This document shows positions 10,145-36,202 of a stretch of 37,317 nt of DNA, one piece after another; within the stretch, counting starts at the first letter, position 1; every line of letters begins with the position of its first letter. The DNA lies in IMG/VR virus record IMGVR_UViG_2721755496_000005; one strand, 5' to 3'. Source of the stretch: a virus. Lineage: Duplodnaviria > Heunggongvirae > Uroviricota > Caudoviricetes. The notes beneath the pieces are model-generated. The model saw only the letters and a list, made by a program, of their open reading frames with translations, ran no database searches and was not told where the DNA came from. The translations under genes were made by a program, and so were the position numbers.

Positions 10145-10717
10145 TCAGGGAGATTCATTGCTCTTATTTGCCGGAAATTTTCTATAAATAGTAGAAACGC
10201 CTACATCAAAAATCAGTGCAATACGCTGTCTTGATTCTCCGGCCTCAAGTAAACGCCCAATCTGTGCCCACTGTTCGGTGGTCAACTTAGGACGGCGTCC
10301 ACCTACTCTGCCTTTGGCACGAGCTGCAGCCAGCCCTGCCCTGGTACGTTCAACTATCAGTTCGCGTTCCATTTCAGCCAGGGCACCCATAACATGAAAA
10401 AAGAAACGGCCCATTGGGGTACTGGTATCAATACTATCAGTCAGGCTTCGGAAATTCACGCCACGCTGGCGCAACTCTTCTATCAGCGTAACAAGATGCC
10501 GCATACTGCGCCCCAGTCTGTCCAGCTTCCAGACAACCAGAGTGTCTCCTGCCGATAGTGTCCTGAGCAGTTTTTTAAGCCCCGGTCTGTCGGACTTAGT
10601 GCCACTGATTTTATCCTCAAAAATCCGCTCACATCCCGCGCAGTTCAGTGCATTACGTTGCAAATCGGTGTTCTGGTCATTTGTTGACACGCGTACATAG
10701 CCAATAAGCATGAGCAT
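10145..10717 (-). CDS. Site-specific DNA invertase (Hin/Gin/Cin/Pin-type serine recombinase)
   Basis: GYVRVST-DQ catalytic N-terminus, LVVWKLDRLGRS and SLTDSIDTS-MGRFFFHVMGALAEMERELI motifs, C-terminal HTH; about 190 aa. Confidence 0.9.
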   Translation of the reverse strand: MLMLIGYVRVSTNDQNTDLQRNALNCAGCERIFEDKISGTKSDRPGLKKLLRTLSAGDTLVVWKLDRLGRSMRHLVTLIEELRQRGVNFRSLTDSIDTSTPMGRFFFHVMGALAEMERELIVERTRAGLAAARAKGRVGGRRPKLTTEQWAQIGRLLEAGESRQRIALIFDVGVSTIYRKFPANKSNESP

Positions 10718-21908: not shown

Positions 21909-23675
21909 ATGAACACCACACTGACACCCGCAGATCTCGATCCCCGTCGGCAGGCCATGCTGCTGTACTTTCAGGGATACCGCGTAGCCCGCATTGCTGA
22001 AATGCTGGGCGAGAAAGTTGCAACCGTTCACAGCTGGAAAAAACGCGACAAGTGGGGTGACTATGGGCCGCTGGATCAGATGCAGCTCACCACCGCCGCA
22101 CGCTATTGCCAGCTCATTATGAAGGAGCACAAAGAAGGGAAAGATTTCAAAGAAATTGACCTGCTGGCACGCCAGTCGGAGCGCCACGCGCGGATCGGCA
22201 AGTTTAACAATGGCGGCAACGAAGCCGACTTAAACCCTAACGTCGCCAACCGCAACAAAGGGCCGCGCCGTCAGCCGGAAAAGAATGTTTTCACCGATGA
22301 ACAGATTGAGAAGCTGGAAGAAATCTTCCATTCCTCCATGTTCAACTACCAGCGCCACTGGTGGGAAGCTGGAAAAACCAACCGCATCCGTAATCTGCTG
22401 AAGTCACGCCAGATCGGCGCGACCTTTTACTTTGCCCGTGAAGCCCTGATTGACGCCCTGCTTACCGGACGTAACCAGATTTTCCTTTCTGCCAGTAAGG
22501 CACAGGCTCACGTCTTTAAGCAATACATCATCGACTTCGCCAAAGAAGTCGAGGTGGAGCTGAAAGGCGATCCGATGGTGCTTCCTAACGGGGCCACGCT
22601 TTACTTCCTCGGCACCAATGCCCGCACTGCCCAGAGTTATCACGGCAACCTGTATCTGGATGAATATTTCTGGATACCGAAATTCCAGGAGCTGCGCAAA
22701 GTGGCTTCCGGTATGGCTATTCACAAAAAATGGCGACAAACCTATTTTTCCACGCCATCCAGCCTGACACACAGTGCTTATCCGTTCTGGTCTGGTGCGC
22801 TGTTCAACCGTGGGCGCAACAAAGCCGATAAGGTGGACATCGACCTGTCCCACAGCAATCTGGCCCCCGGCCTGCTGTGCGCAGACGGGCAATACCGCCA
22901 GATAGTCACCGTGGAAGATGCAGTGCGCGGCGGATGTAACCTTTTCGACCTCGATCAGTTGCGCATGGAGTACAGCCCGGACGAATACCAGAACCTGCTG
23001 ATGTGCGAGTTTGTGGACGATCTCGCGTCCGTGTTCCCGCTCAGCGAGCTGCAGGCGTGCATGGTGGACAGTTGGGAAGTCTGGAGCGACTTTCATGCAC
23101 TGGCCCTGCGCCCGTTTGGCTGGCGCGAAGTGTGGATCGGTTATGACCCGGCAAAAGGTACGCAGAACGGCGACAGCGCCGGATGCGTGGTGGTGGCACC
23201 GCCAGCCGTGCCAGGCGGTAAGTTTCGCATTCTTGAACGTCACCAGTGGCGCGGGATGGACTTCCGCGCCCAGGCTGACGCCATCAAAAAACTGACCGAA
23301 CAGTACAACGTGACATACATCGGTATCGACTCAACCGGCGTCGGTCACGGGGTTTACGAGAACGTGAAAGCGTTTTTTCCTGCCGTCCGGGAGTTTGTCT
23401 ACAACCCCAACGTTAAAAACGCCCTGGTACTCAAGGCCTACGACATTATTAGCCACCGCCGCCTGGAGTTTGACGCAGGGCACACCGACATAGCGCAGTC
23501 CTTTATGGCAATCCGTCGCGCCACCACTGCCAGCGGCAACCGCCCGACCTATGAAGCCAGCCGCAGCGAAGAAGCCAGCCACGCCGATCTGGCCTGGGCA
23601 ACAATGCACGCACTGTTTAATGAACCGCTGCAGGGCGAGTCCGCCAATACCAGCAATATTGTGGAGATTTTTTGA
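21909..23675 (+). CDS. P: Terminase ATPase (large) subunit gpP
   Basis: 588-aa ORF divergent from O, overlapping Q by 4 nt. Confidence 0.9.
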   Translation: MNTTLTPADLDPRRQAMLLYFQGYRVARIAEMLGEKVATVHSWKKRDKWGDYGPLDQMQLTTAARYCQLIMKEHKEGKDFKEIDLLARQSERHARIGKFNNGGNEADLNPNVANRNKGPRRQPEKNVFTDEQIEKLEEIFHSSMFNYQRHWWEAGKTNRIRNLLKSRQIGATFYFAREALIDALLTGRNQIFLSASKAQAHVFKQYIIDFAKEVEVELKGDPMVLPNGATLYFLGTNARTAQSYHGNLYLDEYFWIPKFQELRKVASGMAIHKKWRQTYFSTPSSLTHSAYPFWSGALFNRGRNKADKVDIDLSHSNLAPGLLCADGQYRQIVTVEDAVRGGCNLFDLDQLRMEYSPDEYQNLLMCEFVDDLASVFPLSELQACMVDSWEVWSDFHALALRPFGWREVWIGYDPAKGTQNGDSAGCVVVAPPAVPGGKFRILERHQWRGMDFRAQADAIKKLTEQYNVTYIGIDSTGVGHGVYENVKAFFPAVREFVYNPNVKNALVLKAYDIISHRRLEFDAGHTDIAQSFMAIRRATTASGNRPTYEASRSEEASHADLAWATMHALFNEPLQGESANTSNIVEIF

Positions 23676-24700
23676 TGGGAAAGAGTAAGAAAAACCGCGC
23701 TGCGGCGACGAATCAGCTCAAGCATAAAAGCCAAACTTCAGCCGAAGCATTCAGCTTTGGCGATCCCGTTCCTGTTCTGGACCGCCGTGAACTGCTGGAC
23801 TATGTGGAATGCGTACAGATGGATCGCTGGTATGAGCCGCCCGTCAGCTTTGACGGACTGGCACGAACCTTCCGCGCCGCCGTGCATCACAGCTCACCAA
23901 TTGCGGTGAAATGCAACATTCTGACCAGTACCTACATCCCTCACCCGCTGCTCAGCCAGCAGGCTTTTTCACGTTTTGTGCAGGACTATCTGGTATTTGG
24001 TAACGCCTACCTGGAGAAACGCACGAACCGCTTCGGTGAAGTTATCGCCCTTGAGCCTGCTCTGGCAAAATACACCCGACGCGGGTTAGACCTGGATACC
24101 TACTGGTTTGTGCAATACGGTATGACAACCCAGCCGTATCAGTTCACGAAAGGCAGCATTTTTCATCTGATGGAACCTGACATCAACCAGGAGATCTACG
24201 GCCTACCAGGTTATCTTTCTGCCATTCCGTCAGCCCTGCTCAACGAGTCCGCCACGCTGTTCCGCCGGAAGTATTACATTAACGGCAGCCATGCAGGCTT
24301 CATCATGTACATGACCGATGCCGCGCAGAACCAGGAGGATGTGAACAACCTCCGCAATGCGATGAAAAGCGCCAAAGGCCCTGGCAACTTCCGCAACCTG
24401 TTTATGTACTCGCCTAACGGCAAAAAGGACGGGCTTCAGATCATCCCGTTGTCAGAAGTCGCGGCGAAGGATGAATTTCTGAACATCAAGAACGTCAGCC
24501 GTGATGACATGATGGCGGCACACCGCGTACCGCCTCAGATGATGGGAATTTTGCCGAATAATGTTGGGGGTTTTGGTGATGTGGAGAAGGCGAGCTGCGT
24601 CTTCGTAAGAAATGAACTATTACCACTTCAAAAAAGATTCATGGAAATAAACAGATGGCTTGGTCATGAAATTATAAATTTTGAAATATATACATTATAA
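23672..24700 (+). CDS. Q: Portal protein gpQ; last ~25 codons lie in AT-rich DNA and may be replaced
   Basis: 342-aa ORF after P; the 3' end from about 24615 is markedly AT-rich. Confidence 0.85.
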   Translation: MMGKSKKNRAAATNQLKHKSQTSAEAFSFGDPVPVLDRRELLDYVECVQMDRWYEPPVSFDGLARTFRAAVHHSSPIAVKCNILTSTYIPHPLLSQQAFSRFVQDYLVFGNAYLEKRTNRFGEVIALEPALAKYTRRGLDLDTYWFVQYGMTTQPYQFTKGSIFHLMEPDINQEIYGLPGYLSAIPSALLNESATLFRRKYYINGSHAGFIMYMTDAAQNQEDVNNLRNAMKSAKGPGNFRNLFMYSPNGKKDGLQIIPLSEVAAKDEFLNIKNVSRDDMMAAHRVPPQMMGILPNNVGGFGDVEKASCVFVRNELLPLQKRFMEINRWLGHEIINFEIYTL

Positions 24701-24705
24701 AACCC

Positions 24706-24728
24706 AACGGCATCACAATGATGCCGTT
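24706..24728 (-). terminator. Hairpin between convergent Q and the PIN-like cargo gene
   Basis: Perfect 10-bp stem aacggcatca / tgatgccgtt with a 3-nt loop, followed on the minus strand by a U-rich tract. Confidence 0.45.
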
Positions 24729-24737
24729 ATGAACGAA

Positions 24738-25799
24738 TTAATATTCAAAATTATTTTCTTCAATAGAGAACTCAATCCCTCGGGATAACTTATCAATATT
24801 CACATCAAATGCGATATCTGTTAATTCACCATCCTCGATTTCATACATAACTTCAATTTCAATATCGAAACTAATCTCTTGAACTTCAGTTCGTGTGGTT
24901 GTCTCCATTGGAATCATTACTTTATCTTCGCTATCCCAATACCCATTATTAAAGTCTGGACCAGAAACAGTAACTTCAAAATCTACAGAAACAGAGAAGG
25001 TCGCTAGACAATAATTATTGTCAATCTTAATTATTGATGGTTCAAAGTCATCAATATTGACGACTTCAAATGAATCCAATTCAGCGTCTTCCCAAGTTGA
25101 AACGTTATATCCATCGGCATCATTGAGTTGGGCAATTACGTCCGCTCTTATGTCTTCACGTTTGCTTTCGATAAACTGCATCAATTTATTACTTAATTCG
25201 TTTGTATGCGTATTGTATTCACCTAGAAACTTATCAAGTGAATCAATTTGATGAAGATTGTTTTTACCATCACAATAATTTTTTAAGTCACTATCCTCAG
25301 AAATGATATACACATCTTCATCATTAACAAATCGCTCTACCGCAGCTAAAGTGATTGCATCAGGAAACTCACTTTTTTTCTTATTTTGCCCAAATGGTGG
25401 TTCTTTGCCAAAGTATTTATCTAAAACCTCATTAAGATCTATCACTTCTATTGTAGCTAATTTGGCGTGACATCCTTTCAAAAAATCATCAAAAACTTTT
25501 TGTGCTGCTTCGTGAATTTCATGTTCGTTAAATTGCTGAAAAAAACCATGGAGCGGTCCATTATCAATACTATTCAAAAGCCTAGCTTTTCTTTGTACTG
25601 TGTTTATAGCCTGCAGAGCATCCTTTATTGATTCCTCTATTTTACCTTTTACTTCTCTCTCTACAACTGTAGTTGTAATTAAGACTAAATCACCTTTCGC
25701 ACATAATTCATGGAAAGCTTTAAATGCTACCCCCTCAAAATGAAGACCAGCCTTTACGTACGTTTGTGTGTCAATAAATACCTTATTTGTTTTAAGCAT
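24738..25799 (-). CDS. Cargo protein: putative PIN-like nuclease domain with a strongly acidic C-terminal half
   Basis: 353 aa in AT-rich DNA. The N-terminal half has acidic positions spaced like the PIN catalytic residues (D10, E47/E49, D147 in DAITLAAV, D169/D171 in YIISEDSD). The C-terminal half has repeated hydrophobic-acidic strand motifs such as FDIEIEV and FDVNID. Confidence 0.5.
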   Translation of the reverse strand: MLKTNKVFIDTQTYVKAGLHFEGVAFKAFHELCAKGDLVLITTTVVEREVKGKIEESIKDALQAINTVQRKARLLNSIDNGPLHGFFQQFNEHEIHEAAQKVFDDFLKGCHAKLATIEVIDLNEVLDKYFGKEPPFGQNKKKSEFPDAITLAAVERFVNDEDVYIISEDSDLKNYCDGKNNLHQIDSLDKFLGEYNTHTNELSNKLMQFIESKREDIRADVIAQLNDADGYNVSTWEDAELDSFEVVNIDDFEPSIIKIDNNYCLATFSVSVDFEVTVSGPDFNNGYWDSEDKVMIPMETTTRTEVQEISFDIEIEVMYEIEDGELTDIAFDVNIDKLSRGIEFSIEENNFEY

Positions 25800-25920
25800 A
25801 CTAATCCTAATAAGTTTTAAGATCCGCTACAATTGTTTATGTTTATTTTTTATCAATAATCATACGTAGTTAAGATTATCCATGTCGAAAAATTAAATCA
25901 ACTTCAATTTATCCTTAAGC

Positions 25921-25944
25921 GCGCGCTCGTATCCCCGCCACGCC
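25921..25944 (-). other. Candidate cos (cohesive end) site
   Basis: Minus strand GGCGTGGCGGGGATACGAGCGCGC; the first 13 nt equal the 186 cos sequence as recalled (GGCGTGGCGGGGAAAGCAT); sits in a GC-normal island between AT-rich cargo genes. Confidence 0.4.
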
Positions 25945-26266
25945 TGCCCGCTTTATGTAGTGGTTTTCATGCACCTGCATGTTCTACGTAAAAGCCCGCT
26001 AGTTCTGGCGAGCCTTAGCAAAAACGATCCTTAAACGATCATGCGATTTCATGCAGCATAGTCATGCACTGTCTAAGAGAAGTGAAAGTCCGTATCTGAA
26101 TGACCACTTGAAAAACGAAACATACAGACTTACAAAGATGAAGCTCTACTGTGAGCGAGGAACATACATAGTTGCTCTGTAATAGCCAAATTTTAAGCAG
26201 GAAATCTCTTTTTTATGACAAAACTATAAAGAAAAACAGACCGTTTCATCTCTCAATGAAACTATA

Positions 26267-27844
26267 CTACAATACTTTTCTCTCGATGGTATTTTTAATG
26301 GTCAACATATCTTTAGGAATACTTTTTTTCCCCTCTATACGTATGGTAAACACAAAAAGAATAACGGCTGATCTCACAATTTTCATGAGTTGTAAGAGCT
26401 GTTTCTCAAACTTTTCTTTCTCAATAAACCTCACCTTATCAAAAAATCCATAAGAATTATATAAATCAACTAACATGTCTTTCTCGTGAATAACTAACAG
26501 TTTATGTTCTAAATCATTCCTCCATTCTTTAAAAAAAGCAAGCTCACCATTTTTATCATTCAAATCCATAGCAATACTAAACAACCCCAGCAATCCTTTA
26601 TTATTTATTTTGTTTATTTTAAGCTTTCTTTTTTCATCACTAATCCGCCAGAAGTTATGAAAGTATATATGTCCTCTATCTGGTTTTAAATCAAATAATT
26701 GACACAGAGCAACTGCTATTTTATCCAAGATACCAAAGCAAGCTCTAAATGCAACCCTTAACTTCTCAACATTTTCATACAATATTTCTCCATTATACAA
26801 TTCAGAATAACATACCTCCGAATCCTCATCAAAAAACTCACTATCAACCTTATATTCAAAAAACATTTTTCGTGCTAAGGAATACTCAGCTTTAAGTCTA
26901 TTTAACACCATTTCCATTGGCACTATAAAATCACCAAACACACCTTCCTCGGTGGTCGCAATAGTTATATTATCTTTAGATGACGCATAACAATTGCAAT
27001 ATAGCGAATGATCAGACAACATTAGATTATTATCTATACAAAACCTCTGGTAGTTTGATAAAGTATCATACTCCTCCTGCGTGAGCCTTTCATCTGTACT
27101 TATATCCTCTATGCCATATACACATGATTCACTCAATATACTTTCGTTGTACTTTATTTTTCTTTGAAGAGCAACCTTCCATGAAGGAAAACATTTCCCT
27201 GACTTTATTGCACACTCATAACCTCGAATAACTTCTTTAATCATTTTATATGTATATGTTGTAGATAATTCATTAAGCAATTCTAATGCCTCAGATCTGT
27301 TTACCCACGCCTGAGGAATTGAGTTATCAATAGATATTGCTTGTTCATAATAATCCATTGATTCAGATATACGATATTGTTTTTTTAATACATTAGCTAG
27401 ATTAACTATTAAATCAGGGGGCACCCATCCATCTTCTTGTGAAAGTTTAAACGCTTTCCAGTAATTATTTTTTACATCATTCAGCTTAATGAAACTATCA
27501 ATATCTGCATTGTCATTAGGATTAAAATCAAGAACTGCGCTCATTCCATTTGCCAAGTTATAGTAATATAAAGATTCTTTCATTATAGTCAGAAATTCAT
27601 TTTTATTGTTTATAAAGATATTTAAGCCTTCCTCCGCTATATTTTTTACATTACTAAAATTTCCGATATCAATAAGATTTCCGGCCAAATTAGATAATAT
27701 AATTATTCTATTTTCTTTGATTGTATTTATCTCATCGATACCGTTAAGAATATCCTTTACATTTTTATAGGCAGAATCAAATGAACCTGCATTAATAAGA
27801 TCATCTACGAACCCCATTTTTGAAACAACATAGTTGATATCCAT
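26267..27844 (-). CDS. Cargo protein: TPR-like N-terminal region plus C-terminal HEPN-like domain (R-x4-H); candidate abortive-infection RNase
   Basis: 525 aa in AT-rich DNA; start has an AAGAGG RBS. Contains WRNDLEH (R-x4-H) in the C-terminal quarter and a TPR-like segment YYEQAISIDNSIPQAWVNRSEAL. Confidence 0.55.
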   Translation of the reverse strand: MDINYVVSKMGFVDDLINAGSFDSAYKNVKDILNGIDEINTIKENRIIILSNLAGNLIDIGNFSNVKNIAEEGLNIFINNKNEFLTIMKESLYYYNLANGMSAVLDFNPNDNADIDSFIKLNDVKNNYWKAFKLSQEDGWVPPDLIVNLANVLKKQYRISESMDYYEQAISIDNSIPQAWVNRSEALELLNELSTTYTYKMIKEVIRGYECAIKSGKCFPSWKVALQRKIKYNESILSESCVYGIEDISTDERLTQEEYDTLSNYQRFCIDNNLMLSDHSLYCNCYASSKDNITIATTEEGVFGDFIVPMEMVLNRLKAEYSLARKMFFEYKVDSEFFDEDSEVCYSELYNGEILYENVEKLRVAFRACFGILDKIAVALCQLFDLKPDRGHIYFHNFWRISDEKRKLKINKINNKGLLGLFSIAMDLNDKNGELAFFKEWRNDLEHKLLVIHEKDMLVDLYNSYGFFDKVRFIEKEKFEKQLLQLMKIVRSAVILFVFTIRIEGKKSIPKDMLTIKNTIERKVL

Positions 27845-28094
27845 TCAATCCTCTTTAAACTAAGCTAATAATACCAATCATTATATGGATGAGATCAATA
27901 TAGAACATGCCATCTCCGGCAAAAATCGTACTACATCAGACCAGTGCCCTTCAAATAATATAAATTGAACTTAGATACTTCTGCTTCAACCAGTGTGTTA
28001 AATCCATCGCTTGAACTCAGAACAAAAAGCGGACGATCACTTATCAAAATGGCCGTCCACCTAACGCCTCGTTTCACTCGTTGCCCAAAATAGT

Positions 28095-28122
28095 CCCCCA
28101 TCAGAATGAATCCTCTTGGGGG
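28095..28122 (-). terminator. Possible terminator of the tum-like / dinI-like operon
   Basis: Stem ccccc / ggggg with an 18-nt loop, then a moderately U-rich tract on the minus strand; weak. Confidence 0.3.
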
Positions 28123-28131
28123 CAACGTTTC

Positions 28132-28365
28132 TTAATGCAGCCAGCTGTCGTCTTCCCACACCTTCTGCATAATTTTCATCACTTGCTTCCTTTCTTCGTC
28201 CAGTTGCAGTCCGGTTAGTTCCACACCGTTAGAGCTACCTTTGCGAATGCGAATTACCGTTTTGGGATACAGGGGGCACAGATTGCGGTAAAGCTCGGAT
28301 TCAAGGGCGTCCAGGGTAGACTGGCTAATCTTCTGCTCTTTATCGATCATTATTTCAATGCGCAT
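28132..28365 (-). CDS. DinI-like protein
   Basis: Start at internal ATG (MRIEIMIDK...); about 77 aa; matches the DinI pattern MRIEVTI...LxxELxxR...QxWExxDxW. Confidence 0.75.
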   Translation of the reverse strand: MRIEIMIDKEQKISQSTLDALESELYRNLCPLYPKTVIRIRKGSSNGVELTGLQLDEERKQVMKIMQKVWEDDSWLH

Positions 28366-28375
28366 AAAAGTCACC

Positions 28376-28564
28376 TCAGCTGATGACATCCATTGAGCGG
28401 TTGTATTCGTGGGTTCTGATTTTTGCCATGAGTTCATCTGTTAGTTCAGAAACCCACTGCAGAGCCAGCCCCTTCTCTTCATCACTACACTCACTAGCCG
28501 CTACAAGCTTAAGAAAAAAATCAATGCGCTGGAGCTTCAAAGACTCCAAAAAATAGTCCTGCAT
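28376..28564 (-). CDS. Small Tum-like candidate antirepressor
   Basis: 62-aa ORF directly downstream of a consensus LexA box and upstream of the dinI-like gene, the arrangement of the 186 tum operon; assigned by context only. Confidence 0.4.
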   Translation of the reverse strand: MQDYFLESLKLQRIDFFLKLVAASECSDEEKGLALQWVSELTDELMAKIRTHEYNRSMDVIS

Positions 28565-28605
28565 CTTTCCTCCTATGACACCACAAGAAATACTGTATGT
28601 ATAAC

Positions 28606-28625
28606 CACTGTTTATATTTACAGTA
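28606..28625 (-). promoter_or_regulatory. LexA operator (SOS box) of the tum-like operon
   Basis: cactgtttatatttacagta = CTGT-N8-ACAG with AT-rich spacer, about 45 bp upstream of the Tum-like start. Confidence 0.6.
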
Positions 28626-28717
28626 TATAATAATCTTACTGATGTAAAACGTTTTTTTACGTTCATCAGCCTGATATGCCTGGTATTATTAAGAGCACGA
28701 ATTGTTAATCCGCGTAA

Positions 28718-29074
28718 TTAATACAGGTTCCGCCACTTATCATCTTCCCGCAAACACTGGTTCCGATAGAAGATACGCAAGCCTGCTCCTGACGGAATAC
28801 TGCCGCCGCGAAGGAGTAAATCGACCTCTTTCTCGCTACCATCAAATCCTCTGGACTTCAGCTCATAGACGAGCTGCAGTCGCTGATGGTCTGTAATTCG
28901 CTGTTTGTAGTCTTTACGCCGTTTCGGTTTCACCAGGCGTAACCTTGCAGCCAGTTCCCGGCGCTCTTTTTTGTTCATACTGTGCAGGTAATCGTGCAAC
29001 TCCTTGTCATCCATGCTGGTAATGTCCGTTCTGGGGTCCCCATCAGCTGATTTATCTTTCTCCTGTTGGTTCAA
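28718..29074 (-). CDS. Hypothetical phage protein
   Basis: 118-aa ORF overlapping the gpA stop; basic and charged; no family recognised. Confidence 0.5.
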
Positions 29075-31158
29075 ATTTTCAGCAAGGGGACAGTTATTGC
29101 CACGAGTCCAAGGGGACAGTTATTGCCACGAGTCCAAGGGGCGCAAGCGCCCTGGTCGGCTGCCGCCTCCTGAACATCAACGGCCTTACGAACCATTTTC
29201 CACTTCACGGCATGAGTGCAGATCTTGCCCTCTGCAATAGGTGACCAGATGCCATAAATACGAATGCCGTGATCGCCATAGGCGGTCGGCTCTTCGTTGA
29301 TTTCATAAGCGGTTCTGATGAGGTGATATTTGCGGGGAACCAGTACGCCGCCCTGCTTCATGATGTAGGTGGCAAAACAACCAGCATCAGCAGCAGCCAG
29401 GATGGCATCAAGGCGTGGGTTATCCAGTACCGGCGCACCTGCTTTTTTGTCCCCCTGTTGCCTTGCCGCCTGACCAGCCAGCAATCGCAGTTCACGGTAA
29501 GCCTGACGCCCCGGAATGCCAAAGAAGCGGAATTGCTGAACACGATGCAGAGACGCCCAGGCATTAACGTATTCAGCATTATCACGCAGGGATTTCCCCG
29601 TTTCCTTGCTGATCTCGCCAGCCAGACCACGCCCGTCAATGTTCTTACTGATGTATTTCGCGATGTAGCTTGTTGGCGTTCCTTTGCGCGGGTTAATCAA
29701 CTCAGACTTAAAGCGCGGCCCAGTGTTATTGCCCAGCTCCTCGCGGTCTTCACGGATGGCAAACTTACGCAGTAATGCAGTGATGGCACGGCGGTCTTTT
29801 TTGCGCATGAAACACAACAGGTGCCAGTGAACTGTGCCGTCATGATGCGGCTCAGCCACCCGCACGCCATACCAGCGCAACCCGGCTTTGTGCATCGCCT
29901 TACGAAATGCAGCAAACATGCCGACCAGATAATCGCTGCTTTGTCTTACCGTCGCGTTTGTCCAGGTCGGGTTTGGTCTGCCGTTATTGAGCGTGGAATG
30001 GAAACGTGACGGACAGGTGATGGTGTAGAAAACGGCGCAGTCACCGCGCATTTCCGCGATAAGCTCCAGACCTTTAACACAGGCCATCATCTCATTGCGG
30101 CGATGCGCCGGGTTGCTGCTGCTGGCGTTTACCACATCCTCCATGTCCAGCGTGTCGCCGTCTTCGTTCACCAGTTCATGAGAACGGAAAAACTCCAGCG
30201 ACTTACGGCGCTGCTCACGTTTATGCATCACGGCTTCATAGCTGACATAGGGAGATGCTTTTTTGCTGACCAGGCAGACAGCACGCAACTGCTCTTCCCG
30301 CCATTCGCAACGCATCCTCCATAATTTCCGATACCACCAATCGGCGCACAACATACGCGCCAGCGAACCCGGAATGAGTTCATAGGGCACGGGTTTACGG
30401 CGGTTTCTTTTCCGACGGAGTTGCTCAAACGCAGGAGGGATTACATCCAGACGCAGGGTTTCCGCTGCCACCTTTTCCCATGTCTTGCGGATTTCTTCTG
30501 GCTTAACGTCATCGGTGGCATACAAATCACCACAAGCTGCATCAAGGCACATGCTCATATGCGCGGCAACAAGGGTAGACAGGCGCTTCACCTGATCCTG
30601 ACTCATTTCAGGCAGGATCAGCAGGCCGTCCAGCCCTTCATGGCTTGCCATAAAGCGAAAAGAAGTGGATAGCTGACTCTCGCGTACATGCTCCAGTCGT
30701 TCCAGACATGGCTTAATCGTCTCACGCAAATAGCGGGAATAAGCCTTTGGCCTGCCCAGGCTGCTGAAGTATTCAATACGTTGCATCAGCGGCTTGCTGA
30801 TATGGGAAGGCTGGGCGTTGACGTCCGCCAGAATGACCATATCCGGATTAAAACGCTGCTGCTCATGCGCCAGCTTTGCCCGACTAATGAGCTTATCCTG
30901 CTCGATTTCGCGCTGGACAGGATCACGGGATTCATTAAAGAAATAACGCTCCCAGACCTGATCACTCAGCGCCTCACGGCGCAGCTGTTCCTGCTCGTTA
31001 TCGGCAGCGTACAGAGTGATCAGGTTTGAAAGCGCAGAAACCGGCGCAACTTCCGCCGGGTCCAGATAAGGGTTAATGGCCTTTTTCGGGCTGCTCCATG
31101 AGAATGCTGCTGCGACCTCGTTAAAGCCGCTGCAGTTGTTCATATCAGCATGGCTCAT
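29071..31158 (-). CDS. A: Replication initiation endonuclease gpA (rolling-circle initiator)
   Basis: 695-aa ORF with the VHWHLL and YIAKYISKN motifs recalled as characteristic of P2/186 gpA-type initiators; size close to 186 A. Confidence 0.88.
29085..29136. repeat. Perfect 26-bp tandem direct repeat (2 copies plus 5-nt partial third) within the 3' end of gene A
   Basis: aggggacagttattgccacgagtcca at 29085..29110 and again at 29111..29136, then agggg. Confidence 0.9.
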
Positions 31159-33908: not shown

Positions 33909-34505
33909 ATGTCAACATCAAAGTACCCAAATGAGATCAAAATAAATCCCAATAAAGGTGGTAAGGCTGCGATTGAGCGATTAGTCGAAGCTTATGGCTT
34001 TACGACACGACAGGCTTTAGCTGATCACTTGGAAGTATCAAAAAGCACTCTGGCGAACAGGTATTTGCGGGATACGTTTCCTGCAGACTGGATAATCCAA
34101 TGTGCTCTTGAAACAGGAACCTCACTGAAATGGTTAACCACCGGGCAAGGCCTTAAGCAAAGCTCGCTGACAGCAGCTACAGAAGAGCTTGCCAAGTTTC
34201 GCCTTACCGCAGGCAAAATGATTGAAGATGGTTCATATGTCTTCGATTCATCATTTCTTCCTGCAAATCTTTCATCACCAATTGTTATTCAGGATGGGCT
34301 CGTCACATACATTTGTGATCAAAAATTTTCTGAAGTACTTGATGGGCACTGGTTAATCAACATCGACGGAACCTATTCCATTCGAAAAATCACAAAGCTT
34401 CCAAAAGGTATGATTAAAATTACAAGTACAGAGAATAGCTTTGAATGTGCATTTTCTGATATTGAAGTAGTTGCTTGTATAAGAAGTACAATAGTTTCAA
34501 ATTAA
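33909..34505 (+). CDS. cI: Immunity repressor, 186 CI-like
   Basis: 198 aa; the pattern EAYGF...LA-H...S-LANRY...CALETG-SLKWLTTGQG resembles the 186 CI N-terminal domain as recalled. Confidence 0.7.
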   Translation: MSTSKYPNEIKINPNKGGKAAIERLVEAYGFTTRQALADHLEVSKSTLANRYLRDTFPADWIIQCALETGTSLKWLTTGQGLKQSSLTAATEELAKFRLTAGKMIEDGSYVFDSSFLPANLSSPIVIQDGLVTYICDQKFSEVLDGHWLINIDGTYSIRKITKLPKGMIKITSTENSFECAFSDIEVVACIRSTIVSN

Positions 34506-34525: not shown

Positions 34526-36202
34526 ATGAATTCATTTTCCATCGTTATATTCTTATTAGCATTTCTCGCCCCCATTCTAGCTGTAATATTATTTAAGCAA
34601 AGCAAAAAACATAAAGCGGCTATAGATACCTTGACAGCTAACAACATAGCCCTTTCCAACCAACTGAAAGAAAATCAAGAAGAATTAGCACAGACTGTAC
34701 GAGATCTATCAGAGCTTGAAGGACGAGCTGCACCATTATGGCAATACGTAGAATTGCACAGCGCAGTGATGGAAGCAGAGAATAAGATAAAAAATGCAGA
34801 CTCAATAGCCAGGCAAAAAATAGAAGAAGCCCAAATAAAGGCTGCTAAGACAGTAAACGAAGCAAATTATCAAGCTCAGATAAAAATAAGCAACGCTAAT
34901 AGCGAAGCTATAGCAATTACTAAAGACGCTCGCGATGCACGCCTGAAAGCTAAAGAACGTCTTGATAATGCCAATAGTAAAGCAAATGAGCTGATCTCAA
35001 ATGCTAATGACAATGCAGTGAAAATTATTTCCGATGCAGAAGAAAGAGCAAAAGAGATTGCTGGTTCAGCATATGAAGCTAAAGAGTTTGCAGAAAAATA
35101 TGAAGCAGTTGCCAAATCAATGAAAAATAAAATTGAAGGTTATGGTGATGAATGGATCATCCCTAACCGTAGCGTTCTCGATGAATTGGCAGAAAATTAT
35201 GAGTTTACAGATGCAGGCAAGGAATTACAAAAAGCCAGGGAGTTAACAAAATCATTAATAAAAACTAATAAAGCTGCTTCGTGTGATTATGTTGAACAAA
35301 ACAGGCGTAATACTGCTATCAACTTTGTTTTAGATGCCTTCAATGGAAGAGTTGACAGTATTTTATCAAAAGTCAAACACAACAATTTTGGAAAACTTTC
35401 CCAAGAGATAAAAGATGCGTTTCAACTTGTAAATTACAATGGTTCTGCCTTTAGGTCCGCAAAAATAAGTGACATCTATCTTCAAGCTCGACTCAACGAG
35501 CTAAAATGGGGTGTTGCAGTTAATGAAATTATGCTCGAAGAAAAAGAAGAGCAAAGAAGGATTAAAGAACAACTTCGTGAAGAGGAAAGAGCTCGTAGGG
35601 AGTATGAAAAAGCGATAAAAGAAGCTGAAAAAGAAGAGAAAGCTATTCAGCAAGCTATAAATAAAGCAACAAAAGAGCTTATGCTTGCAAATGAAGAACA
35701 ACGCTTAGCTTTAGAGCAAAAAATAGCTGAACTACAGTTAAAATATGAAGAAGCTGAAGCTAAAAACCAACGAGCTATTTCTATGGCTCAACAAACTAGA
35801 TCAGGCCACGTTTATATAATTAGTAATATTGGCTCATTTGGCGAAGATGTATATAAAATTGGAATGACACGCCGCCTTGAACCACTTGATCGTGTTCGTG
35901 AACTCGGTGATGCTAGTGTTCCTTTTTCGTTCGATGTTCATGCGATGATTTATAGTGATGATGCACCATCATTAGAAAATCATCTGCATAAAGTCTTCAA
36001 CGAAAAACAGGTCAATAAAATTAACTCACGAAAAGAGTTTTTCAACGTAAATATTAAAGAAATTAAGTCTGTTATTGAAGATATGAACATCAACGCACAA
36101 TGGACAATGTTTGCGGAAGCGAAAGAATATAGAGAGTCACTGGCGATTGAGCAAGAGCGCAAAGCAGCAACTTCCGCCAACGATGAACTGCATGTTGCTT
36201 AG
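34526..36202 (+). CDS. Cargo protein: N-terminal transmembrane helix, long coiled coil, C-terminal GIY-YIG-like (T5orf172/MUG113-type) domain
   Basis: 558 aa in AT-rich DNA, 21 bp after cI with AAAGGA RBS; hydrophobic N-terminus, about 380 aa of heptad-like Lys/Glu/Ala-rich sequence, then GHVYIISN...YKIGMTRR...R-x3-E-L...N. Confidence 0.6.
   Translation: MNSFSIVIFLLAFLAPILAVILFKQSKKHKAAIDTLTANNIALSNQLKENQEELAQTVRDLSELEGRAAPLWQYVELHSAVMEAENKIKNADSIARQKIEEAQIKAAKTVNEANYQAQIKISNANSEAIAITKDARDARLKAKERLDNANSKANELISNANDNAVKIISDAEERAKEIAGSAYEAKEFAEKYEAVAKSMKNKIEGYGDEWIIPNRSVLDELAENYEFTDAGKELQKARELTKSLIKTNKAASCDYVEQNRRNTAINFVLDAFNGRVDSILSKVKHNNFGKLSQEIKDAFQLVNYNGSAFRSAKISDIYLQARLNELKWGVAVNEIMLEEKEEQRRIKEQLREEERARREYEKAIKEAEKEEKAIQQAINKATKELMLANEEQRLALEQKIAELQLKYEEAEAKNQRAISMAQQTRSGHVYIISNIGSFGEDVYKIGMTRRLEPLDRVRELGDASVPFSFDVHAMIYSDDAPSLENHLHKVFNEKQVNKINSRKEFFNVNIKEIKSVIEDMNINAQWTMFAEAKEYRESLAIEQERKAATSANDELHVA

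Follow-up and report, generated by a model that had tools for sequence, protein, structure and literature searches.

The window analyzed here, a stretch of 37,317 nucleotides recorded in IMG/VR as IMGVR_UViG_2721755496_000005, is an Escherichia coli P2-like prophage in which a gene encoding a 353-aa protein lies between the portal gene Q and the cohesive-end site cos. Such a position raises the question of what this gene (hereafter the PIN gene) does there: does it belong to the packaging machinery, or is it cargo, and if so with what function? A preliminary description, made from the sequence alone, had favored the second answer and had proposed an autonomous moron encoding a PIN-like nuclease domain followed by an acidic module.

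The PIN gene and its immediate surroundings

The PIN gene occupies positions 24738-25799 on the minus strand, in exact agreement with the ORF list, next to the terminase ATPase gene P (21909-23675, plus strand) and to Q (23672-24700, plus strand). The DNA separating the Q stop codon from cos measures 1,225 bp, as against 167 bp in P2 (the earlier figure of about 100 bp was roughly right). The PIN gene has a GC content of 0.34, compared with 0.50-0.56 in P and Q, and the drop begins about 110 nt ahead of the Q stop codon. The initial picture of a 353-aa gene set in AT-rich DNA between Q and cos was therefore accurate. The cos-like motif noticed at the same time proved to be real, as the cohesive-end 19-mer GGCGTGGCGGGGATACGAG (25926-25944, minus strand), which forms the right flank of the cargo module, matches P2 cosL, whose counterpart is GGCGAGGCGGGGAAAGCAC. 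Conserved cos DNA spans positions ~25920 to ~26094; all related loci checked retain the 19-mer together with about 150 bp on its right side, cos being conserved in L001, L002, L004, L005, L086, L093, and L094. Counted from the left end of the packaged DNA, the PIN gene comes first. Across cos from it lies a gene encoding a 525-aa TPR and HEPN_LA2681 protein (26267-27844, minus strand; Pfam PF18733, E-value 1.9e-38), and the same prophage carries PD-Lambda-1, which brings its defense-type cargoes to three.

The gene also has expression signals of its own. A Shine-Dalgarno-like AGGA, read directly from the sequence (25805-25808, minus strand), stands 5 nt upstream of the ATG, and a sigma-70 promoter-like site (25859-25888, minus strand; TCGACA-18-TATGAT, 10 of 12 matches) is found between cos and the gene start. 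The latter is the joint best match in the region but is to be read as a consensus match only, since promoter-like matches as a class do not exceed in total what shuffled sequences yield. The PIN gene and Q converge, and between them an intrinsic-terminator-like hairpin (24705-24729, minus strand) with an 11-bp stem, five GC pairs, and the tail GGTTTTATAA directly follows the end of the PIN gene. The ribosome-binding site and the flanking terminator that had been pointed out earlier are thus both present.

This compact arrangement, with only 126 bp from the start codon to cos and the terminator followed by Q on the downstream side, was searched for a possible partner. No antitoxin-sized ORF was found beside the PIN gene, and the 126-bp stretch from the ATG to cos contains no ORF. 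The adjacent, cotranscribed small antitoxin gene by which VapBC modules are recognized is missing, as the gene is followed by a terminator and by the convergent Q. As for an RNA antitoxin of type III, positions 24500-28800 gave no Rfam match at an E-value of 1 or below and contained no relevant tandem repeats. The HEPN_LA2681 gene was considered as the second member of a two-gene system and rejected on its distribution in complete E. coli genomes: the PIN gene occurs without it in 34 genomes, it occurs without the PIN gene in 9 of the 11 genomes that carry it, and M8 and H2 are the only genomes in which the two coexist. In strain NS-NP030, the gene found across cos from the PIN gene encodes a DUF2971 protein, not a HEPN protein. 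The Q-side PIN gene and the A-side HEPN gene therefore assort independently.

Altogether, 36 of 5,426 complete E. coli genomes contain the PIN gene, whereas this type of Q is present in 1,234 of them. The 36 copies, all chromosomal and all annotated as intact, share at least 99.6% identity. These data indicate that the PIN gene is a self-contained accessory gene with its own expression signals and no partner, which agrees with its designation as an autonomous moron and not a core packaging gene.

The Q-cos interval as a cargo slot

To place the PIN gene among its alternatives, we fetched 80 P2-like loci from IMG/VR whose Q is at least 93% identical to that of the window, and cos could be placed in 75 of them. 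In these 75 loci, the Q-cos spacing ranges from 159 to 3,497 bp (median 1,680 bp), with 52 different slot lengths; it reaches at least 500 bp in 73, and only two display the short spacing of P2. The preliminary description had implied that an insertion between Q and cos is an oddity; this view has to be reversed, as it is P2 that is the exception. Clustering at 40% identity sorts the 112 ORFs of the slots into 64 protein clusters, and all but one of these ORFs share the strand of the PIN gene. A scan of the 54 larger cluster representatives identified AbiU/AIPR, retron reverse transcriptases, GmrSD, TIR/ThsB-like, SLFN/AlbA, DprA, Cap4 nuclease, SieB, KAP NTPase, AAA_13, and UvrD proteins, among others. 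The commonest Pfam family in the slot is PIN_12, the family of the protein studied here, with three divergent clusters.

The P2 gpA-gpQ region was defined as a hotspot by Rousset et al. (2022; PMC9122126), whose Table S5A already lists arrangements with PIN_12 genes, including WP_063106696, although the PIN_12 gene was not among the genes tested; the same study notes that hotspots also hold nondefense cargo such as partition systems and toxins. We found that WP_063106696 is the allele of the PIN gene carried by strain NS-NP030. The PIN gene is thus cargo in the Q-cos part of a published hotspot, replaced by other genes in sister prophages. It shares its locus, low GC content, turnover between sister prophages, and association with defense with the other gpA-gpQ cargo, namely old and tin of P2 as well as DprA-PRTase, DUF4238, and others (PMC9122126). 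The Q-cos and cos-gpA sub-slots were not separated in that work (PMC9122126), whereas in the window they can be told apart, with the PIN gene on the Q side and the HEPN gene on the A side.

Alignment against relatives, the approach suggested earlier for mapping the junction, placed one edge next to cos and the other within the portal gene. On the right, sequences diverge about 8 nt past the cohesive end. On the left, the boundary does not follow Q but lies inside its AT-rich 3' end (24590-24700, plus strand), where the GC profile drops and which constitutes both the flank and the junction of the exchangeable module. Over its final ~110 nt, Q is AT-rich in the cargo-bearing loci L004, L005, and L086, in contrast to P2 and to the short-spacing relative L034, in which this part is GC-rich; despite this change in base composition, the encoded protein sequence is still conserved with respect to P2 gpQ. 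Moreover, many alignments of E. coli Q genes break within positions 24591-24696. These observations define the stretch from Q to cos as a separate cargo sub-slot, whose limits are a recoded 3' end of Q and a point ~8 nt from the cohesive end.

Homologs that are 51-56% identical occupy the same slot in a Pantoea prophage, in a metagenomic P2-like prophage, and in a P2 remnant. In the Pantoea and metagenomic loci, the homolog is preceded by genes that could have been taken for partners, but PADLOC identifies them as RmrT/RmrA and, because this is a known separate system, we consider them independent of the PIN gene. More distant homologs reside in different settings: next to AbiTii and a Pf prophage in Pseudomonas aeruginosa, in a conjugative element beside an AAA_15 and HNH pair in Salmonella, and in a small island in Vibrio. 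Among 50,697 phage records, a single one contains a homolog (41% identity), that of Enterobacter phage ENT4, an unverified and unannotated record in which no P2-type Q, P, A, or cos is found nearby.

Domains of the PIN_12 protein

Residues 1-185 (25245-25799, minus strand) constitute a PIN domain of the PIN_12 (DUF4935) family. The match to Pfam PF16289 scores 91 bits, against a cut-off of 32 bits, with an E-value of 1.5e-25, and covers profile positions 1-171 of 172 (residues 7-171). A search of 5.8 billion proteins retrieved 160 homologs, from Vibrio, Pseudomonas, Aeromonas, Salmonella, Pantoea, and other hosts. The best 120 of these are almost all 343-367 aa long (a few reach 389 aa), are 38-56% identical to the query, and nearly all align across at least 96% of it. 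In an alignment of 52 full-length homologs (39-56% identity), residues D10, E49, D147, S167, D169, and D171 are invariant, as is the signature PPFG..KKK.EFPDA, and the six residues, which include the acidic active-site set (D10, E49, D147, and D169, along with D171), are also present in distant representatives of the family. The three acidic motifs originally read as PIN-like do contain D10, D147, and D169/D171, but the second acidic residue, E49, had been overlooked. The gap that had seemed too long for a PIN nuclease does exist; it extends from E49 to D147 and is filled by a helical insert typical of DUF4935.

Structure prediction is in agreement with this assignment. In an AF2 model built on the alignment (pLDDT 88.7, pTM 0.79), the N-terminal domain is matched by Foldseek to VapC11 (6a7v) and VapC15 (4chg) with probabilities of 0.98-0.99, E-values of ~0.02-0.05, and a target-normalized TM score of ~0.6, so that the PIN fold proposed earlier is supported by structure as well as by the Pfam match. 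The full model had no Foldseek match in the PDB at an E-value of 1e-3 or better, a sequence search of the PDB yielded chance-level matches only, and PADLOC 2.0, PHROGs, and NCBIfam returned no match for the protein. We conclude that the protein is a member of PIN_12/DUF4935 with a modeled VapC-like fold and an intact catalytic residue set, and that it is predicted to be a nuclease.

The family has been described as monocistronic, with a long helical insert that follows strand 2 and with an alpha/beta region at the C terminus that has no solved relative (Matelska et al. 2017; PMC5499597). A length of ~350 aa, an N-terminal PIN domain of the VapC group, a C-terminal alpha/beta region, and the monocistronic state are all found here; we noted no difference, and the protein is a typical member. 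With the VapC toxins VapC11 and VapC15 of Mycobacterium tuberculosis, it shares the PIN fold and the acidic active-site tetrad; it differs from them in lacking a VapB antitoxin gene, in being more than twice as large, and in possessing the large helical insert and an additional C-terminal domain.

This additional domain comprises residues 228-353 (24741-25118, minus strand) and is connected to the PIN domain by two linker helices (residues 186-227; 25119-25244, minus strand), which pack on the C-terminal sheet in the models; DSSP assigns helix to residues 188-199, 202-212, and 214-227 of the AF2 models. With 33 D/E and 5 K/R among its 126 residues, the domain is beta-rich and carries a net charge of -28, as the description of a highly acidic, strand-rich C-terminal half had anticipated. 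This charge is conserved family-wide (family mean -27). The domain is not of low complexity and holds some of the best-conserved motifs of the whole protein (YN.S.WED, GPD..NG..D.ED, and GIE..EE). Modeled alone with the preceding helices, it gave a pLDDT of 89.2 and a helix pair lying on a long curved antiparallel sheet, an arrangement that places it, as a model, in the NTF2/cystatin-like class of helix plus curved beta-sheet folds. This designates a general fold class and no specific relative, and there were no structural matches to known DNA mimics.

We also asked in which proteins this domain occurs. A search of 1.84 billion representative proteins with a profile of the domain gave 271 clusters, in which nearly all full-length matches are ~345-365 aa long with the domain at residues ~187-355, the shorter ones being fragments. 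PIN_12 motifs were recognized in 31 of the 32 distant matches that were read; the exception, P0330 (1,035 aa), turned out to be a repeat-protein false positive and was discarded as a carrier of the domain. The profile search thus finds the domain in PIN_12 proteins only, which led us to reject the notion of a promiscuous sensor common to other effectors: the idea of a modular sensor receives no support from domain shuffling, and the domain is tied obligatorily to DUF4935 proteins instead of being a shared module. A sensor or DNA-mimic role of the acidic half, as suggested earlier, is neither favored nor contradicted by these results, and the DNA-mimic version is a minority reading. To the published picture of DUF4935, these results add a confident NTF2/cystatin-like model of the C-terminal domain and its restriction to the family.

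Relation to Cosus and proposed function

Cosus (Brc24) is a single PIN_12-domain gene from mobile-integron cassettes that abolishes T7 plaques, lowers fitness by 11%, and does not readily become established in P. aeruginosa (bioRxiv 10.1101/2024.07.02.601719). Its supplementary sequence was OCR-damaged and contained frameshifts; we reassembled it from parts, and the result served only as a query for an intact database protein, P0121, a 382-aa DUF4935 protein from Providencia stuartii, which we take as the recovered Cosus/Brc24 and which has the stated residue at 8 of 11 published mutation positions. BLASTP aligns residues 2-216 of the E. coli protein with P0121 (E-value 3e-17, 29% identity), and hhalign comparison of the profiles of the two clades extends the match to residues 7-299 (278 columns, probability 99.2%, E-value 9e-20), that is, ~70 residues into the C-terminal domain. 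A residue-by-residue check paired Cosus residues D14, D153, and D177 with D10, D147, and D169, respectively. Both proteins also display the motifs IDx, KK.EFPDA, and VS.D and, in the C-terminal part, WED and DS.DK. They follow the same two-domain plan, in which PIN_12 at the N terminus precedes an acidic, beta-rich domain at the C terminus, and both are encoded by single genes without a partner on a mobile element. On the other hand, they belong to different clades, with ~23% identity over the full length and 29% in the PIN domain, and the carrier is a slot of a P2-like prophage in one case and an attC cassette in the other. By these sequence comparisons, the E. coli protein is a distant homolog of Cosus/Brc24. 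A reading in terms of defense calls for some caution, as identity to Cosus is ~23-29% and the phenotype data come from Brc24 challenged with T7. The nondefense cargo found in hotspots calls for caution as well, and so do the mutant and escape data on Cosus described below, which hint at a second, injection-related activity.

As a distant relative of a validated anti-phage gene, the PIN gene is a good but unsurprising defense candidate. Our analysis makes it fairly probable that it is a single-gene anti-phage system of the Cosus/DUF4935 family, consisting of a PIN nuclease effector and of an acidic domain that serves as a regulator or assembly module. Expressed from the prophage, the gene would shield the lysogen from other phages on its own. 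The effector would be a metal-dependent PIN nuclease of the VapC type, cutting probably RNA or possibly single-stranded DNA; some proteins of the Cosus clade have an extra N-terminal cold-shock domain, which suggests a single-stranded nucleic-acid substrate. Because a constitutively active nuclease without an antitoxin should be toxic, some regulation has to be assumed, and the attached C-terminal domain may control the nuclease by keeping it inactive, or by assembling it, until a cue from infection. For Cosus, a hexamer has been predicted.

A more specific form of control can be imagined, in which the acidic domain is a built-in nucleic-acid mimic lodged in the substrate groove of the PIN domain, in cis or within an oligomer, thereby making the protein a single-chain toxin-antitoxin; a phage nucleic-acid-binding protein would then pull the decoy off and unleash the nuclease. 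This one mechanism would account for the lack of an antitoxin gene, for two domains that are strictly coupled, and for a charge that is both extreme and conserved, but we regard it as unlikely.

It is likewise improbable, in our estimation, that the protein defends the cell without PIN nuclease chemistry. In such a scheme, it would prevent genome injection or recognize a protein of the virion or its tail, and the PIN fold would act chiefly as a scaffold for binding. The idea draws on the genetics of Cosus: the only T7 escape mutation found maps to the tail protein gp12; mutants, including those altered at catalytic-site-like positions, keep ~100-fold residual protection; the authors suggested a second, injection-related activity; and D153A and D177A, which were also made, are absent from the strongly defective mutants reported (bioRxiv 10.1101/2024.07.02.601719). 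However, protection is weakened more than 10^5-fold by T12A, D14A, or D96A (bioRxiv 10.1101/2024.07.02.601719), D14 being the equivalent of D10, and the acidic tetrad together with S167 and D171 is invariant in 52 diverse homologs and maintained in distant members, which argues for selection on catalysis.

A solitary toxin, that is, a VapC-like growth arrester acting as an addiction module in prophage stabilization or in a stress response and not dedicated to defense, seems rather doubtful. The VapC-group fold, the presence of the gene and its homologs on mobile elements, and the fitness cost and difficult establishment of Cosus would all fit a toxin, but the locus has neither an antitoxin gene nor RNA-antitoxin-like repeats or an Rfam match, the family is described as monocistronic, and the genes found in the slot and beside the homologs are defense genes. 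We give still less credence to a counter-defense function, in which the acidic domain would mimic nucleic acid in the manner of Ocr or ArdA and neutralize DNA-binding defenses of the host or of competitors for the benefit of the P2-like phage; such a role is consistent with the family-wide charge and with the place of the gene as the first one at the left end of the packaged DNA. Finally, a core function in P2 packaging or at cos, for which the place between the portal gene and cos would speak, is effectively refuted by distribution, as the gene is found in only 36 of the 1,234 genomes with this type of Q, is absent from P2 and from 50,696 of 50,697 phage records (ENT4 not being P2-like at this locus), and gives way in sister prophages to proteins of more than 60 unrelated clusters.

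Earlier publications already cover the family, the hotspot, and a validated homolog. What is new is modest: the fold class of the C-terminal domain and its exclusivity, the Q-cos sub-slot with its junctions, and the link between the E. coli clade and Cosus. The boundaries of the sub-slot should be useful for mining further defense genes, and the Cosus/DUF4935 defense family gains a clearly delimited candidate clade from E. coli in a natural prophage setting. If phage challenge proves positive, this clade would make it practicable to study in E. coli how the family and, in particular, its exclusive acidic domain work.

Occupants of the interval between Q and cos

The variable cargo interval between portal gene Q and cos, which in the window holds the PIN gene (a PIN_12 gene), contains other genes in related P2-like loci. 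In Pantoea and metagenomic P2-like prophages it carries RmrT/RmrA (L086, 6236–7943; L094, 6235–7939), and the two proteins of the L086 pair, the only one scored, matched PADLOC models with E-values of 6e-92 and 7e-196. In both loci RmrT/RmrA lies immediately upstream of a PIN_12 homolog within the same interval, so that two systems are stacked in a single slot. Two further loci encode divergent PIN_12 proteins there, both on the minus strand: one of 376 aa in L030 (2583–3710) and one of 367 aa in L037 (8074–9174). The PIN_12 family has thus come into this slot more than once, on several occasions. An N-terminal cold-shock domain (PF00313) was found on four database PIN_12 proteins of about 462–467 aa (P0215, P0219, P0223, and P0229) from the clade of Cosus (Brc24), a single-gene anti-T7 protein distantly homologous to the PIN gene product; this fusion is a hint that the PIN_12 substrate is RNA or single-stranded DNA.

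Additional candidate defence genes in the window

On the gpA side of cos, the window encodes a 525-aa protein with TPR and HEPN_LA2681 domains (26267–27844, minus strand), whose Rx4H motif reads RNDLEH. Its comparison with PADLOC matched no system and returned only weak TPR matches. Among 5,426 E. coli genomes, 11 carry this gene, and in this species it and the PIN gene assort independently; it is a candidate single-gene defence system. A third defence cargo of this prophage is located between the CI repressor gene (33909–34505) and the gene for the integrase (from 36286 to the end of the window), where a 558-aa DUF4041 and T5orf172 protein (34526–36202, plus strand) matches the known system PD-Lambda-1 (E-value 4e-120).

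Prophage functions and cargo exchange

Replication gene A (28718–31158, minus strand) is split into a 695-aa ORF (29071–31158) and a 118-aa ORF in another frame (28718–29074), and in RefSeq the strain M8 copy is labelled "frameshifted" and the NS-NP030 copy "internal stop"; the prophage may thus be replication-defective. A Hin/Cin-type serine invertase with Resolvase and HTH_7 domains (10145–10717, minus strand) adjoins the tail-fibre genes, which implies a host-range inversion switch.

The final ~110 nt of Q (24590–24700, plus strand) equal the cargo in AT content, yet the encoded residues are still conserved relative to P2 gpQ. Other relatives with cargo show this combination as well, and P2 does not. 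It suggests that the 3′ end of Q and cos serve as recombination flanks for cargo swaps.
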